Positions 21,712 through 28,405 of a stretch of 64,000 nt of DNA are shown piece after piece. The stretch is from assembly GCA_004553575.1 (NCBI GenBank), contig SFLA01000002.1:474-64473 (forward strand), in the 5' to 3' direction. A program made the translations under genes and the position numbers. The stretch is from Clostridiales bacterium (GTDB lineage: Bacteria > Bacillota > Clostridia > Oscillospirales > CAG-382). The notes beneath the pieces are model-generated. The model saw only the letters and a list, made by a program, of their open reading frames with translations. It searched no databases and had not been told where the DNA came from. Within the stretch, counting starts at the first letter, position 1. Each line of letters starts with the position of its first letter.

Positions 21712-22563
21712 CTATATCGAGCGGAAATTCTTTCCGAGTATCTCGCTGGTGTTGGTTATGAACATAAACGCCTCCGGATCGACCTCGCGGATCTTTTTGC
21801 GCAGGCGGAGCGCCTCGCTGCGCCGGCAGGCGGTAAGCAGCAGAGTTTTGCTGCTGTGTGTGAAGGCCCCCGTTCCGGTAAGCATTGTCGCGGTATGATT
21901 AAGATCGTTCATTATGAAATCCGATATCTCTTCCGGCTTGTCCGTCACTATCGTAAAGTATTTGCACAGGTTCAGACCGTCGATAACCGTGTCGATAAGG
22001 AAGGATTTGGTTACGAGACCGAGTATCGAGAACAGCCCTATCCGCACTCCGAACACAAAAAACGACATTGACGCAATTATAATGTCGGCGCAGAGCAGAG
22101 CCTTTCCGGAATCCAGCCCGAAGTACTTGCGTATAATCATTGCGATAATATCGGTTCCTCCGGACGATCCGTCGTGGTCGAAGATTATCGCGCTGCCAAC
22201 CGACGGCAGGGATATGGCAAATATAAGCTCAAGCAGAGTCTCGTCGGTCAGCGGACCTGTCATGGGTACAAACCGCTCAAGCAGCCATGTCAGCGCCGAA
22301 AAGAGAAGCGAGCAGTAGGCCGTTTTAACGCCGAAACCCTTGCCGAGCACGAGAAATCCGATGATAAGCAACAGTATATTGAGTATGGTCATAATCGTCG
22401 CCGTGGACGGAAGTGTGGGCCACAGCCCGGATATGAGCAGCGAAAGACCGCTTATCCCGCCGGTCACAAAACGGTTCTGGAACTTAAAGAAATATATCCC
22501 GACGGCGGTCAGAACCGACCCGAAAGTAAGTACGCCGAATTCTTTAAGCTTGACCTTCATCAT
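21712..22563 (-). CDS. YitT family (DUF2179) membrane protein
   Basis: 283 aa. N-terminal 5-TM region with GGxSG (TGGISGLSLL, GSSGGTDI). C-terminal soluble DUF2179-like domain. Confidence 0.8.
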   Translation of the reverse strand: MMKVKLKEFGVLTFGSVLTAVGIYFFKFQNRFVTGGISGLSLLISGLWPTLPSTATIMTILNILLLIIGFLVLGKGFGVKTAYCSLLFSALTWLLERFVPMTGPLTDETLLELIFAISLPSVGSAIIFDHDGSSGGTDIIAMIIRKYFGLDSGKALLCADIIIASMSFFVFGVRIGLFSILGLVTKSFLIDTVIDGLNLCKYFTIVTDKPEEISDFIMNDLNHTATMLTGTGAFTHSSKTLLLTACRRSEALRLRKKIREVDPEAFMFITNTSEILGKNFRSI

Positions 22564-22701
22564 CTCACCCCATAGTATTATAACGCCGAAAACCCCTTTG
22601 TCAACAATTTGCTTAAAAATTAATATTATTATTGCAACATCGCAAAAAATGTGATATCCTTAATATGTATGTAAATGCACATCAGTCAGGGAGGAACGGT
22701 C

Positions 22702-23283
22702 ATGGCGAAGCTGTATTTCAAGTACGGCACGATGGGCAGCTCCAAGAGCGCGCAGGCGCTTATAACCAAGTTCAATTACGAGGAGCGGGGCATGAGTGTC
22801 TGGCTTATCAAGCCCGCGATCGACACCCGCGACGGAGCAAGCATAATAAAGAGCCGTATCGGTCTTTATGCGGAGGCGGATCCGATAAATGCGGACGACG
22901 ATATATACGCCATGTACGTTGCCTCGCACCGCGGCTGCGACGTGATTATTGCCGATGAGTGCGAAATGTTTACCGAGGATAATATCGACCAGATGCGGCG
23001 GATAGTGGACGAGTTCAATCTGCCGGTTATAAATTTCGGGCTCCGCGCCGATTTCAGAACAAGGCTGTTCCCCGGCTCCAAGCGGCTGTTTGAGCTGGCG
23101 GATTCTATAACCGAGATAAAGACGGTATGCGCCTGCGGCGCCAAAGCTACCGTAAACGCCCGCATTTCGCCTGACGGAAAAGTCGTTACCGAGGGAGCGC
23201 AGATAATGCTCGGGGGCAACGAGTGCTATACCGCGATGTGTCACAGATGTTATGTGAATGAGCAGAAGAAGGGGAACGAATAA
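22702..23283 (+). CDS. tdk: thymidine kinase
   Basis: Track ORF trimmed to ATG 22702, after GGGAGG. E. coli-type TK blocks: LYFKYGTMGSSKS, ADECEMF, GLRADFR, C-terminal zinc-site cysteines CACG..CHRC. Confidence 0.9.
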   Translation: MAKLYFKYGTMGSSKSAQALITKFNYEERGMSVWLIKPAIDTRDGASIIKSRIGLYAEADPINADDDIYAMYVASHRGCDVIIADECEMFTEDNIDQMRRIVDEFNLPVINFGLRADFRTRLFPGSKRLFELADSITEIKTVCACGAKATVNARISPDGKVVTEGAQIMLGGNECYTAMCHRCYVNEQKKGNE

Positions 23284-25193
23284 TGAGCGTAACGAAATAT
23301 CTTTTCGATTCACTGAGCAATGCCATGCCGCTCTGCCCGCATCTCGGAGGAGCGTATTCCGTCAATTCCTACGATATCCTTCAGGGCAGGATAAATTCCA
23401 GCCGGTTTTCGAGCCTGTCCGAGGATATGCGGATATCGTCGGACACCGAGGTAGTCATAGTCGCCAAATCGGTTAATACTTCTGTCGGCGGAGGTATATA
23501 CAGCTCCTCATCGACGTCTGCGCTGCGCGGCCTGTATTTTATCCCCGCGATGCTCGGCACCGACGGAAGGCTTTCTCTGATTCAGTCCAAACTTCCGTAT
23601 TTTGAAGAAGAATTCCTCGGCGGAGAGTACTGCTTCGGCGACCGAGCCGCCGCTCACGGCTATCTCGCCAACAACACCCGGCTTATATCGGCAGTCTATG
23701 CCAACGGAAGCTGGGAGGCGTATATAAAGCTCGCCGTCGCTTATTTCGAGGAGGTGTGCCGAGTTTCATATAACGAGTGCTACCTCTTTAACCGCGCCGA
23801 CGAGACACGGTTCATTCTCGACCGGAACTGCTACATACTTCCCGCCGGCAGGGTGACTCATATAAAGCCCATGCTGCGCCTGTATGCGCGGATATTCAAG
23901 GCGGGAAATCCCAATAAGCTGTACGGCGATTTCTGCGAAGGGAACGGCGAGAACGTTTCGTTTATAACTTTAACCCCGCAGGAGAAGCAGGATTTTATCC
24001 GCGAGATAGCGGTAAGCTGGATAGTCAACAATGCTCTTAAGCGCGCACCGTCAATGCCGATCGTTGTCGGTACCGACATGTCGCCCTCGCTGCGTCTGGC
24101 GGAGGGAGGAAACGACCTGTTCGGCTACTGGACCGATATACGCAGCAGCGTCCAGTCGCTCCCGGCGATAGATACGACGGGAATACCGACGGACAGCGTG
24201 TTTTCCGCCTGTGCCCGCCGCTACGGAGTGACCTTTTCCTCCGCAGTCGGATGCGTCGAGCGTATTCACCGCGAGCTTACCTCGCTGTCTCTGCTGAACG
24301 ACCGGGTTCTTACCGAGATAAAGAAAAATCCCGGACTTATGTCCTTCCCGTGTTCGGACGGAAAGAGGCAGACCTTCGCAGCCTCGCAGACATTGCTTAA
24401 ATGCGAGGAGCTCGAGCGTACCCTGCGTGAGAGAAGAGTGGAATGGGAGATATTCCTTCAGAAGCTTCCCGCCCGTATAAAGCTGTTCGGCGGGCTTAAG
24501 TCCGTGCGCGAGGAGCGCGAGGAGCTGTTTGCCGAATTCATGGGCGACAAGGATTCCTTCCTGCGTCCCGATATGACCCCGCAGCAGATTCTTTCGGAGT
24601 TCACGGTTATGGCGGAGAAAAACGCCGCTCTTATGAAGGATATGAAGGCAAAGAAAGCGCTGCTCGACATTATCGGCGAATACAGCGAGTTCGGTATCGA
24701 CTTCTTCCGTGCCGACCCCGACGGAACCGACCCGGATTTTGTCTGCACCGTTCAGGATATGACCGCCCTTATAAAGAAGCGCGTTATGCCTACGATGTTC
24801 TGGCTGGCCGTGCATTATTACGAATGCGTATGGGCGTCCGACCCTGTCGGGAATCCGTATACGCTGGCTCCCGTAATTTTTGCGCCCTGCGTTAAGATTG
24901 CCGATCAGTTCGATACGTTCGATTCGATACCCCTGCTGATAATCGATCATGCGGACAGCATTTCGCCCGAATATGCCGGCGGTTTGTTCGCGCTGGCAAA
25001 AAGCGCAATACTTATATGCGACGGCGACGGAAGCCGGCCGGTGCATACCGTGCCGCGCGGGACAGACCCTGTGCTCGCAATACGCGGCGGAGCGATAGAG
25101 TATGCCGACGAATTCGAAAAGATAAAAAAAGCCGGTCTTTCGGTGTCTTCCTGCTCGCTTGCGGACTGCTTCAGGGTATCCGATCCGACTTGA
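23283..25193 (+). CDS. uncharacterised 636-aa protein with degenerate SF1-helicase-like motifs
   Basis: ATG 23283 overlaps the tdk TAA (TAATG). Long ORF with no competing recognisable gene. Motif relics LTPQEKQDFI...MPIVVGTDMSPS and LLIIDHADSISPE...AILICDGDG. See findings. Confidence 0.7.
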   Translation: MSVTKYLFDSLSNAMPLCPHLGGAYSVNSYDILQGRINSSRFSSLSEDMRISSDTEVVIVAKSVNTSVGGGIYSSSSTSALRGLYFIPAMLGTDGRLSLIQSKLPYFEEEFLGGEYCFGDRAAAHGYLANNTRLISAVYANGSWEAYIKLAVAYFEEVCRVSYNECYLFNRADETRFILDRNCYILPAGRVTHIKPMLRLYARIFKAGNPNKLYGDFCEGNGENVSFITLTPQEKQDFIREIAVSWIVNNALKRAPSMPIVVGTDMSPSLRLAEGGNDLFGYWTDIRSSVQSLPAIDTTGIPTDSVFSACARRYGVTFSSAVGCVERIHRELTSLSLLNDRVLTEIKKNPGLMSFPCSDGKRQTFAASQTLLKCEELERTLRERRVEWEIFLQKLPARIKLFGGLKSVREEREELFAEFMGDKDSFLRPDMTPQQILSEFTVMAEKNAALMKDMKAKKALLDIIGEYSEFGIDFFRADPDGTDPDFVCTVQDMTALIKKRVMPTMFWLAVHYYECVWASDPVGNPYTLAPVIFAPCVKIADQFDTFDSIPLLIIDHADSISPEYAGGLFALAKSAILICDGDGSRPVHTVPRGTDPVLAIRGGAIEYADEFEKIKKAGLSVSSCSLADCFRVSDPT

Positions 25194-25218
25194 CACGGAG
25201 CAATATCTGTGTTAAAAT
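25190..25218 (+). promoter_or_regulatory. sigma-A type promoter for the second SBP pair
   Basis: TTGACA (25190-25195, overlapping the stop of the 636-aa gene), 17 nt, TAAAAT (25213-25218). Confidence 0.55.
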
Positions 25219-25277
25219 ACACCCATCTGTATTCTAAACCGTTTGTTTAGCCATTTTTAATTGAAAGGAATGCGCAA

Positions 25278-26777
25278 ATGAAAAAACACATCAGACTGTC
25301 AGCCCTTATTCTGTGCCTGCTGATGATCGCCGGTGCTTTTGCTGCCTGCCAGCCCACATCCGACACATCGGATGTCAGCGGAAATACCAGTGAAAACGGC
25401 ACCGAGGGCGGCCGCTATGTTGCGGATCTGCCTGAATTCAAGTGGGATACCTCCAACGAAACCTACGCCAAGTTCAAAGTCTGCGTATACAGCAACGAGC
25501 AGCAGACCACCTATTTTTCCGAGGAGATCGGATACGGCATGTATACCACCACCGATGAGGTTATAACCGATGCGGTAATGAATCGCAACAACTATGTAAC
25601 CCAGCTCACCGGCGTGGAAGTGGTCGCATGTGCCGTACCGGATGTACTTCCCGCGGTACAGAACGACCTTGTCGGCGGAACCCAGCTTTACGATATGGCA
25701 ATGCCGTTCATGCCTGCCGCCGCAACTCTGGCACAGGAAGGATCGCTGTATGCTCTCAACGACGAAAAGTTCGCCGATTATATCGATCTTTCCAAGCCGT
25801 GGTGGGATCAGAACGCAAACGCCTCGCTTTCCGTAGACGGCAAGCTGTTCTTCACGATCGGCGATATTTCGATAATGCAGAAGATAGTCAGTACAGCCAT
25901 CACCTTCAACAAGGAAATGTACGCGACTTATTTCCCCGGCGAAGATTCTCTTTATGATGTAGTAAAGGACGGCGACTGGACGCTTGACCTTATGGTAAGA
26001 CTTTCCAAGGCTGTCACCCAGGATAACGGCGACGGAGTATGGGACAGCAACGACCAGTGGGGACTTTCCTCCTCCTATGCCGACTCCAATATGTTCTATC
26101 TCGCCTCCGGCCAGAGTATCTGCTCAAAGGATTCGGACGATATACCCGTGTTCTCGATGGACAACAACGCAAGCGTGAACATAATCCAGAACATACTCAC
26201 CAACCTCCAGCTTCCGAACACCTGGTGCATCCACGCCCAGCAGTTCGATGCGGCGAACAGATGGGTAATTTCGCTGGATATTTTCGGCGAGGGCAGATGT
26301 CTGTTCAGAACCAGCGCTTTCTCCGCCATCAAGAAGCTCCGCGCCTATGAAGAGGGTGTGGAATTCGGTATAATCCCGATGCCCAAGATGACCGCAGAGC
26401 AGGAGAATTATTACACTCCGTGCTCCGCAAGGTATTCATACGCAGTCGTTATACCCAACAATGTTGCCGACGCGGAATTTTCGGCTTATATGACCGAGCT
26501 GCTTTGCTGCGAGGGAAAGAACTATATAGCAGACGCGTATTACGAGACCACTCTTAAATCGAGAGACGCCCGTGACGACGAGTCCGAGGAGATGCTCGAT
26601 CTCATATTCAGCAATGTCGTGTATGATGTCGGATATATATATAACTTCGGCAGTGCATCCAACTTGCTCGAGAATATGATGAGCATAAACTCCACCGATA
26701 TCGCCTCCCAGCTCGAGACCATAACCCCCACGGTAGAAGCTGCTATCGAGGAGACGATCGAGAATTTCAGAGACTGA
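25278..26777 (+). CDS. large extracellular solute-binding lipoprotein (paralog 3)
   Basis: Lipobox FAAC, 499 aa. Collinear with 26900..28405 (e.g. GRYVADLPEFKWDTSNETY, AYYETTLKSRDARDDESEEMLDLIF, IEETIENFRD end). Confidence 0.8.
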   Translation: MKKHIRLSALILCLLMIAGAFAACQPTSDTSDVSGNTSENGTEGGRYVADLPEFKWDTSNETYAKFKVCVYSNEQQTTYFSEEIGYGMYTTTDEVITDAVMNRNNYVTQLTGVEVVACAVPDVLPAVQNDLVGGTQLYDMAMPFMPAAATLAQEGSLYALNDEKFADYIDLSKPWWDQNANASLSVDGKLFFTIGDISIMQKIVSTAITFNKEMYATYFPGEDSLYDVVKDGDWTLDLMVRLSKAVTQDNGDGVWDSNDQWGLSSSYADSNMFYLASGQSICSKDSDDIPVFSMDNNASVNIIQNILTNLQLPNTWCIHAQQFDAANRWVISLDIFGEGRCLFRTSAFSAIKKLRAYEEGVEFGIIPMPKMTAEQENYYTPCSARYSYAVVIPNNVADAEFSAYMTELLCCEGKNYIADAYYETTLKSRDARDDESEEMLDLIFSNVVYDVGYIYNFGSASNLLENMMSINSTDIASQLETITPTVEAAIEETIENFRD

Positions 26778-26899: not shown

Positions 26900-28405
26900 A
26901 TGAAAAAGCTTACCATTATTATGTTGTGTCTGCTGCTGACAGCCGGCTGTATGCTGGTGTCCTGCAACGGCGATAACGGCGATGTCTCACAGACGGCGAG
27001 CGATACCTCGACCGTATCGATCGATGGATACGACCCTGAAAGCGGTCGTTATGTCGCCGATCTTCCCGATTTCAAGTGGGACGCAACCAACGAGACCTAT
27101 TCGACCTTCAAGGTTTGCGTTTACAGCAATGTCATAGAGACCACTTATTTCTCAGAGGATATCGGATACGATCTGTATACGACCACAGACGAAGTTATTA
27201 ACGACGCTGTAAGAGAGCGCAATAACCTCGTGCTCGAAAAGACCGGCGTTACCGTGACCGCCTGCCCGGTCGACAAAGTTTTTACCGCAGTACAGAACGA
27301 CATTGTCGGCGGAACCCGTCTTTACGACGCAGCCATGCCGTTCATTGGCGACTGCGTAAAGCTCGCACAGGAGGGTCAGCTTCTGGCGCTCAATGACGAA
27401 ATGTTTGCCGATTATATCGATCTTTCGATGCCGTGGTGGGATCAGAAAGCGTCCGAGGCATTTTCGGTGTCTGACGTGTTGTTCTTCACGACCGGCGATA
27501 TAACCATAATGAATAAGATCGACACCTGGGCTATCACTTTTAATAAAGAGATGTACTCGACCCTTTTCCCGGGAGAAGATTCGCTTTACGATATCGTTAA
27601 GCAGGGCAAGTGGACCTACGATAAGCTTATAAGCATGGCAAAGACCGCCACCGTCGATAACGGCGACGGAGTTTGGGATTATAAGGATCAGTGGGGACTT
27701 TCCTCCGCATACGGCGATCCGATCGCTTATTATCTTGCTGCCGGTCAGTCGCTCTGCTCCAAGAACGCCGACGATCTCCCGTATCTTTCTATCGGCAGCG
27801 ACGCTTCCTTAAGGCTCGCTCAGGACATTCTCCAGGAGTTCTCGGTGAATAATTCATGGCGCATATACGCCCAGAGACTCGGAACTCCCAACATCTGGGT
27901 TACCGCTCTCGATATATTCGGTGAAGGCAGAGCGCTGTTCAGAACCAGCGTCTTTTCCGCCATCAAGAAGCTCCGCAATTACGATAACGGCATTGAGTTC
28001 GGTATAGTGCCGATGCCCAAGGGCAGCGAGGAGCAGGAGTCTTATCTTTCTCCCACCACCGGCGGTTACGGTATCGTAATACCCACCAGCGCTGCCGACC
28101 CCGAATTCTCCGCCTATATGATCGAGCTTATCGCGTCCGAGGCGAAGAACACGCTTACCCCCGCTTACTACGAGACCACCCTTAAATCGAGAGACGCCCG
28201 TGACGACGAATCCGAGGAAATGCTCGATCTGATATTCGGAAATCTTAACTACGATATAGGTCAGATCTATGATTTCGGCGGAGTCGCCTCGATGTTCTAC
28301 ACTCTCGCCAGTTCCGACAGAAGCGATATAGCCTCTTCACTGGAACAGATACAGGGTACCATTGAAGCCAAGATAGAAGAGACCATAGAGAATTTCAGAG
28401 ACTGA
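26900..28405 (+). CDS. large extracellular solute-binding lipoprotein (paralog 4)
   Basis: GGAGGA RBS, lipobox LVSC, 501 aa. Confidence 0.8.
   Translation: MKKLTIIMLCLLLTAGCMLVSCNGDNGDVSQTASDTSTVSIDGYDPESGRYVADLPDFKWDATNETYSTFKVCVYSNVIETTYFSEDIGYDLYTTTDEVINDAVRERNNLVLEKTGVTVTACPVDKVFTAVQNDIVGGTRLYDAAMPFIGDCVKLAQEGQLLALNDEMFADYIDLSMPWWDQKASEAFSVSDVLFFTTGDITIMNKIDTWAITFNKEMYSTLFPGEDSLYDIVKQGKWTYDKLISMAKTATVDNGDGVWDYKDQWGLSSAYGDPIAYYLAAGQSLCSKNADDLPYLSIGSDASLRLAQDILQEFSVNNSWRIYAQRLGTPNIWVTALDIFGEGRALFRTSVFSAIKKLRNYDNGIEFGIVPMPKGSEEQESYLSPTTGGYGIVIPTSAADPEFSAYMIELIASEAKNTLTPAYYETTLKSRDARDDESEEMLDLIFGNLNYDIGQIYDFGGVASMFYTLASSDRSDIASSLEQIQGTIEAKIEETIENFRD

Follow-up and report, generated by a model that had tools for sequence, protein, structure and literature searches.

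The stretch of DNA analyzed here, which we call the window, comprises 64,000 nucleotides of contig SFLA01000002.1 from a Clostridiales bacterium, and the subject of this work is one gene on its forward strand, designated gene X (protein P0001). Gene X is located at positions 23283..25193 (+) and encodes a 636-aa protein that, as explained below, is very probably a pseudo-helicase, that is, a truncated and motif-dead derivative of an MkoC-like helicase of superfamily 1B (SF1B). The gene directly upstream is tdk (22702..23283, +), whose identity as the thymidine kinase gene follows from matches to Pfam TK (1.1e-38) and to the NCBIfam thymidine kinase model NF003300 (1.4e-64). The match begins at residue 10 of the longer open reading frame (ORF), and the true start of tdk is probably the ATG at 22702, behind a GGAGG sequence, which gives a protein of 193 aa. 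The tdk stop codon TAA (23281-23283) and the X start codon ATG (23283-23285) have one A in common (TAATG), and the sequence AGGGGA lies 8 nt upstream of the X start codon. At the other end of the gene, the X stop codon TGA (25191-25193) is embedded in the sequence TTGACA (25190-25195), which forms the -35 hexamer of a promoter-like site for the downstream lipoprotein genes. A first-pass annotation of this DNA, made from its letters, had described the 636-aa ORF, its overlap with the tdk stop codon and the stop codon placed inside the -35 box of the next operon. All three can be read in the sequence, the last being real as a sequence feature.

Relationship of X to MkoC-type helicases

Sequence searches with X itself gave no match in Pfam (AAA_11 included), NCBIfam or PDB, and a profile of the X family gave no match in PDB either. 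A word-indexed search returned only eight clusters of close homologues, all of them 630-647 aa long and 62-68 % identical. An exhaustive phmmer search of 1.84 billion representatives with X as the query yielded 78 matches; one of these was the 50 % cluster of X itself, two were fragments, and the remainder were mostly proteins of 950-1180 aa. Residues 1-630 of X correspond to residues 1-760 of these long relatives, in which AAA_11 is split into an N-terminal part (~260-340) and a C-terminal part (~700-760) and is followed by AAA_12 (~770-990). The PADLOC model for MkoC matched the long relatives with E-values of 1e-262 to 1e-288 and X itself, in three stretches, with 5e-30. In agreement with these results, when the profile of the X family (A1) was compared by hhalign with that of 37 full-length relatives (A5), the probability was 100 % and the E-value 1.8e-55 over 613 aligned columns, and residues 1-626 of X fell on columns 7-762 of the 1161-column alignment of the relatives. 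The nearest full-length relatives (P0014 and P0015) are 25-30 % identical to X over X residues 1-627. The profile of the parent family matches Sen1, Upf1 and Dna2 by sequence solely in the 2A domain, and X alone finds nothing by sequence because this domain, where the signal of the parent family sits, is absent from it.

The fold predicted for X was also compared with known structures. AlphaFold2 (AF2) run on nine close homologues alone gave an unusable model with a predicted local distance difference test (pLDDT) score of 43.6; the 63-sequence alignment (A4) alone gave a confident one (pLDDT 90, predicted TM-score 0.82). In this model the strand formed by residues 225-229 runs straight into the helix of residues 232-252, which constitutes the beta1/alpha1 unit of a RecA domain, and the other strands of the RecA sheet are formed by residues 531-534, 549-555 and 572-579. 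Between the two halves of this 1A domain lies an insertion of ~200-270 aa that is homologous, and longer, in the relatives. It is helical (aa ~301-500; 24183..24782, +) and contains an antiparallel coiled-coil hairpin made of helices 357-393 and 433-470; in VIA, residues 355-470 matched coiled-coil hairpins. A partly coiled-coil insertion, then put at ~300 residues, had been proposed in the first-pass annotation.

The part of X preceding 1A is an N-terminal alpha/beta domain (hereafter N-domain; aa 1-222; 23283..23948, +) specific to the MkoC-like family. In the full-length relatives it corresponds to residues 7-240, and in the AF2 model its pLDDT values are mostly above 90. No Pfam model exists for it, and no Pfam match was obtained over this region in either X or its relatives. 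An ESM Atlas feature search with aa 1-228 returned low-score clusters associated with AAA_11 only (0.81), which we regard as a lead. The best Foldseek match of the AF2 model was SETX (4e-4), and the ESM Atlas gave a TM-score of 0.67 over 559 residues to a cluster of 1001 aa containing AAA_11 and AAA_12. X has a RecA-like 1A fold homologous to that of Upf1, Dna2 and Sen1. Sequence, profile-profile and fold evidence agree, and we conclude with high confidence that X is an inactivated derivative of a Upf1/Dna2-like SF1B helicase that contains 1A and the insertion and does not contain 2A, which is what the first-pass annotation had proposed. Its further remark that it knew of no described family of this kind holds in part. 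The parent family has been described, since it is the MkoC of type II Mokosh in PADLOC; for the truncated, motif-dead form found fixed in one genus, neither Pfam nor NCBIfam has a model, and the searches made here turned up no described counterpart.

Type II Mokosh consists of a helicase followed by a PLD, and defence is reported to be lost when either its ATP site or its PLD site is mutated (Millman et al. 2022, preprint 10.1101/2022.05.11.491447). Like MkoC, the single protein of this system (PADLOC PDLC03924), X has the family-specific N-domain, a 1A domain split by a long helical insertion, the signature FWLAVHYYECxW, and regions of motifs II and III that are colinear with those of MkoC. 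The two differ in size and content, however: canonical MkoC proteins are 1127-1181 aa long and carry a C-terminal PLDc_2 domain (P0066, P0077, P0083 and P0084), whereas the 636-aa X has no P-loop, no DE and Q residues, no 2A domain (AAA_12) and no C-terminal PLD (HxKxxxxD) nuclease. They also differ in context, X being located outside defence islands as a fixed core gene of one genus and not patchily distributed. The PLD-less MkoC-like helicases of ~980-1020 aa (P0014 and P0015) share the N-domain and the insertion with X but have all helicase motifs invariant and a complete AAA_12. Upf1, Senataxin/Sen1, Dna2, IGHMBP2 and ZNFX1, for which structures have been solved, are active ATPases, and their sequence matches lie in the 2A domain that is absent from X. 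HelD, the RNA-polymerase-binding protein of Firmicutes, is a UvrD-like (SF1A) protein that has kept both RecA domains and its ATPase; X matches it at background level, and the likeness is one of analogy only.

Two loci of the wider family deserve mention. In locus L019 (622-9564), the 980-aa PLD-less protein P0014 is followed directly by a nuclease with Mrr_N and Mrr_cat domains and then by hsdR, hsdM and hsdS of a type I restriction-modification (R-M) system. Such a locus could represent a Mokosh-like variant with an Mrr-type nuclease in place of PLD. In locus L040 (770-3774) the MkoC-like gene is split, a 277-aa N-domain ORF (P0045) overlapping the start of a 732-aa ORF with AAA_11 and AAA_12. 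Whether it arose by a frameshift or is a natural two-gene form, this arrangement shows that the N-domain is a separable module. The other truncated or frameshift-split MkoC-like genes that we found were singletons.

Loss of the helicase motifs and of the 2A domain

The motifs of X were assigned using the 63-sequence alignment (A4), a 12-sequence MAFFT alignment (A2) and hhalign. In the 37 full-length relatives the residues GPPGxGKTT of motif I, D-E..Q of motif II (D-E-A-G-Q) and G-D..Q of motif III are invariant. In X the P-loop position (aa 229-236, TLTPQEKQ; 23967..23990, +) is degenerate, and only K235 is left of GxxxxGKT. This lysine aligns with that of GKT in all three alignments and does not vary among the 63 sequences. 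At the Walker A position, A4 has TLTPQEKQ and the MAFFT and hhalign alignments have a gap, and the glycine-rich loop is absent from X in every alignment version. The versions differ in that LTPQE falls on the P-loop itself in A4, which fits the structural model, and on the preceding LSPSQ, with the P-loop deleted, in A2.

These alignments confirm the claim of the first-pass annotation that X lacks a Walker A motif. Its equation of LTPQEKQ with the helicase motif L(N/T)xxQxxA holds only in part, as LTPQEK lies at or next to the degenerate P-loop depending on the alignment, and its placement of MPIVVGT (MPIVVGTDMSPS) at the Walker A position has to be given up. MPIVVGTDMSPS aligns instead with the motif Ia strand of the relatives (PIIVASSTNNQAV); this strand of X (aa 257-267, SMPIVVGTDMS; 24051..24083, +) is degenerate and has an 8-residue deletion. 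The two remaining assignments proved correct. LLIIDHADSISPE aligns with motif II of the full-length relatives (LLIVDEAGQVSPE), and at this position (aa 551-560, LLIIDHADSI; 24933..24962, +) DEAGQ has been changed to DHADS. Similarly, AILICDGDGSRP (aa 575-586; 25005..25040, +) aligns with motif III (AVVVGDxxQIxPV), and here VVGDxxQIxP has become ICDGxxSxP. Both DHADS and CDGxxS are invariant within the X family.

The C-terminal end of X is located ~10 residues past the last aligned column, just ahead of the GLFLSEHRRCYDEII block that opens AAA_12 in the relatives. As had been claimed, no 2A domain follows: with its end at column 762 of 1161, X is without 2A (AAA_12, motifs IV-VI) and without the C-terminal PLD. 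As Mokosh carries a PLD, a PLD-like HxK motif was sought in the N-domain of X, where none was found; the PLD of canonical MkoC is C-terminal. Because X has no P-loop, no DE and Q residues, no 2A and no nuclease domain, helicase-type binding or hydrolysis of ATP, translocation and cutting are not expected of it. The alignments show a protein that, as predicted from its residues, cannot be a helicase, a P-loop-type ATPase or a nuclease.

The ending of X just before 2A raises the question of whether X is one half of a split helicase whose 2A domain is encoded elsewhere. Split forms do exist in the family, as illustrated by the N-domain ORF P0045 and the 732-aa helicase ORF that follows it. However, no AAA_12 above cut-off is present anywhere in the genome of the window (83.5 % complete), the gene following X encodes a lipoprotein, and the missing P-loop and DE would block ATP hydrolysis even if a 2A partner were available. 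We therefore regard a split helicase as extremely improbable.

Conservation of X within its genus

The distribution of X was surveyed using one genome per species. X is present in a single copy and without internal stop codons in all 10 genomes of the genus, being split over contig ends in two fragmented assemblies, and it is absent from all 154 genomes surveyed for the 14 other genera in the family. The frame is 630-636 aa long, and all full-length orthologues share the C-terminus ...ADCFR(S/K/T). X occupies one fixed chromosomal place, with solute-binding protein (SBP) genes, spoIVB and spo0A nearby, and its GC content equals that of its surroundings. The genomes are metagenome-assembled genomes (MAGs) of uncultured Clostridia/Eubacteriales from ruminant and pig hindguts, those bearing the orthologues coming from ruminants. 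As judged from this distribution, X is a single-copy, vertically inherited core gene of the genus. The window species or close strains of it (97-100 % identity over 22738-25500) were encountered in pig-gut metagenomes and metatranscriptomes of several studies (runs X15-X18).

Synonymous divergence (dS) among X orthologues reaches saturation. For the closer pairs, at dS values of 0.4-1.2, the Nei-Gojobori ratio of non-synonymous to synonymous divergence (dN/dS) of X is 0.05-0.09. The ratio is 0.02-0.18 in each of four regions (N-domain, N-terminal half of 1A, insertion and C-terminal half of 1A), with values of 0.06-0.10 for the N-domain. Over 37 species pairs the median dN/dS is 0.10 for X versus 0.25 for the adjacent lipoprotein gene. 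Together these ratios show strong purifying selection along the whole length of X. Most of the gene is also covered by contigs from four metatranscriptome or transcriptome libraries belonging to three studies. Contig holes over 22400-22711 or 25104-25207, seen in some of the RNA runs, were not used as evidence.

A gene that has lost all catalytic motifs and the C-terminal third of its parent might be a decaying remnant (pseudogene) of a defence helicase, and isolated truncated or frameshift-split MkoC-like genes do exist elsewhere as singletons. For X, though, the frame of 630-636 aa is uninterrupted in all ten species and, wherever a locus extends that far, closes with the same C-terminus; dN/dS stays at about 0.1 throughout the regions compared and below that of a neighbouring bona fide gene, and promoter and ribosome-binding site (RBS) are conserved (see below). 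A pseudogene is accordingly highly improbable.

Alternatively, X could still be part of an anti-phage system: as a non-catalytic descendant of MkoC, it would serve as a sensor, a decoy or a regulator for an effector whose gene lies at another site. The family from which X derives acts in defence (PADLOC MkoC), the closest full-length relative of X, P0014, has an Mrr-type nuclease and a type I R-M system as neighbours, and the N-domain and insertion retained in X are the parts most likely to sense or dock. Defence genes, however, are normally patchy in distribution and turn over fast, whereas all ten species have X at a single fixed chromosomal position, next to spoIVB and spo0A, and its dN/dS is about 0.1. 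Moreover, none of the loci has a nuclease or another effector next to X. When 164 genomes of the taxonomic family were searched with the MkoC profile, the only matches were unrelated AAA_11/AAA_12 helicases that correspond to its 2A part; no complete MkoC, and hence no in-situ ancestor, was detected. We consider a remaining role in defence unlikely.

The interpretation that we favour, and hold to be fairly probable, is that X is an exapted non-catalytic binding protein. In this scenario, an ancestor of the genus would have acquired an MkoC-like (Mokosh type II-like, Upf1-family SF1B) defence helicase. Its descendant X has kept the family-specific N-domain, the RecA-like 1A fold and the long coiled-coil insertion. 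Gone are the glycine-rich P-loop, most of motif Ia, the catalytic DE from motif II and the Q from motif III, as well as the entire 2A motor domain and any C-terminal nuclease. X would then work solely by binding, in the role of an adaptor, a scaffold or a regulator, through its N-domain, its coiled-coil arm and the shell of 1A. If so, X constitutes a clean and datable case of a phage-defence helicase that was stripped of its motor and nuclease and retained as a core gene for a different, non-enzymatic job; to our knowledge, pseudo-enzymes derived from defence genes have rarely been documented in bacteria. It would also mean that the N-domain, the coiled-coil insertion and the 1A shell of the Mokosh helicase, which is poorly understood, can stand alone under selection, and the parts retained in X would therefore point to the sensing or docking surfaces of active MkoC.

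Several points weigh against this interpretation. Binding as the mode of action was reached by elimination. All genomes are MAGs of uncultured organisms, and the restriction to uncultured gut MAGs is also a practical limit. Contigs from RNA libraries can contain DNA and do not prove a single transcript. As the genome of the window is 83.5 % complete, its missing remainder could contain a separately encoded 2A domain or the gene of a partner. Finally, the former nucleotide pocket keeps the invariant residues K235, D555, H556, D558, C579 and D580, and may therefore be a remodelled catalytic or ligand site. The former ATP cleft would in that case have been rebuilt, with K235, D555-H556-A557-D558 and C579-D580-G581, all of them invariant across the genus, forming a new His/Cys/Asp/Lys pocket for a metal or small ligand or for a new reaction. 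The spatial clustering of K235, D555, H556, D558, C579 and D580 was deduced from standard RecA topology, and we assign a low probability to such a pocket. If it were real, X would be no passive scaffold but a helicase recruited from defence to housekeeping, where it would serve as a sensor or enzyme with a new ligand.

Genes flanking X

The sole neighbours conserved beside X across the genus are two paralogous genes for solute-binding-type lipoproteins of ~500 aa (25278-26777 and 26900-28405, +), the first of which (SBP1) starts 84 nt downstream of the X stop codon. In every locus X is followed by two (three in L005, 8057-12709) such paralogous ~500-aa lipoproteins with weak similarity to SBP_bac_1, and these arrays are without an adjacent permease or ATPase. 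The region between X and SBP1 occurs in two forms. Four of the 11 species (window, L005, L011 and L014) have the promoter with the embedded stop codon (TTGACA...TGTTA(A/T)(A/T)AT), which in the window is the site TTGACA-17-TAAAAT with TG (25190..25218, +; 11/12 match). The other seven (L001, L004, L008-L010, L012 and L013) have a TAA stop codon, an A-rich spacer of 45-57 nt that is nearly pure A/T, and an RBS, with no promoter-like site. This suggests that in these seven species the SBP genes may be transcribed by read-through from X. In addition, one RNA-library contig spans the X stop codon and the start of SBP1.

Based on this arrangement, X could work together with the SBP lipoproteins as part of one operon, regulating or assisting their expression or export. 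All loci examined share the order X-SBP1-SBP2 but differ in their upstream genes, and both the spacer without a promoter-like site in 7/11 species and the contig bridging X and SBP1 are in line with co-transcription. Yet a gene order shared inside one genus is a weak indication of function, and in four species, among them that of the window, the SBP genes have a strong promoter of their own. Furthermore, X lacks a signal peptide and is cytoplasmic, whereas the SBPs, as exported lipoproteins, are found on the opposite side of the membrane. A function of X with the SBPs therefore seems doubtful to us.

The upstream side of X is variable. The loci of the other species contain no tdk, either in the 1.2-6 kb upstream of X or on its downstream side; the genes upstream of X encode a GDSL lipase, a MatE transporter or an unknown protein of 134 aa. 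A search for tdk in five relatives located it elsewhere in the genome in four of them (in G069, on the same contig at 141 kb from X), and the four tdk loci (L020-L023) differ in flanking sequence; the fifth relative (G070), whose genome is 97 % complete, gave no tdk match. As a side observation, tdk seems unusually mobile or dispensable in this genus.

In all other species the stretch of ~70 nt upstream of X is conserved and contains TTGCAC, a 17-nt spacer, an extended -10 sequence TGTTATTCT and an ATATCTGTATC box, followed by GGAGGG. The homologue of this promoter and leader in the window is located at 22632-22694, upstream of tdk instead of X. It consists of the promoter-like site TTGCAA-17-(TG)TATCCT (22632..22660, +) and a leader extending to the GGAGG at 22690-22694, and it is homologous to the site directly upstream of X in ten other loci. 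In the alignment of these regions (A3) the mean column identity is 76 %, and TTGCA, AAAAA.TGTG.TAT and GGAGG are invariant. The X promoter of the genus would be a conserved sigma-A-type promoter with an extended -10. In the window, tdk is located between X and X's own promoter and RBS, either because it was inserted here or because it was lost from this place elsewhere. Either direction is compatible with the position of the window species, whose branch is among the two deepest of the genus.

The first-pass annotation had taken the overlap of the two genes to mean that X is tied to thymidine kinase and nucleotide salvage. Locally, the coupling is real: the two genes overlap at TAATG, no promoter is present between them in the window, and contigs from RNA libraries extend across the tdk-X junction in three runs of two studies, which is compatible with a tdk-X bicistron. 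The first-pass annotation had itself stated that a lack of conserved tdk linkage in relatives would remove the argument for functional coupling, and such a lack was observed. The survey of this linkage does not extend it beyond the window, as tdk adjoins X in no other species, lies elsewhere in 4/5 relatives and had no match in a 97 %-complete genome, and the promoter in front of tdk in the window is the X promoter of the other species. We conclude that the tdk-X coupling is a local gene-order event and not a conserved partnership, and a functional coupling of X to nucleotide salvage is very unlikely. The locus may serve as a worked example that a translational overlap with a neighbour in one genome is not to be read as a functional partnership.

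Two minor features of the region upstream of X may be added. In 5/11 of the X orthologues (L004, L008, L010, L012 and L013) the start codon is TTG and not ATG, at the same position behind the conserved GGAGGG. The ATATCTGTATC box just past the -10 sequence could be an operator or a leader element; in the window it serves tdk (equivalent in L001, 5900-6003).

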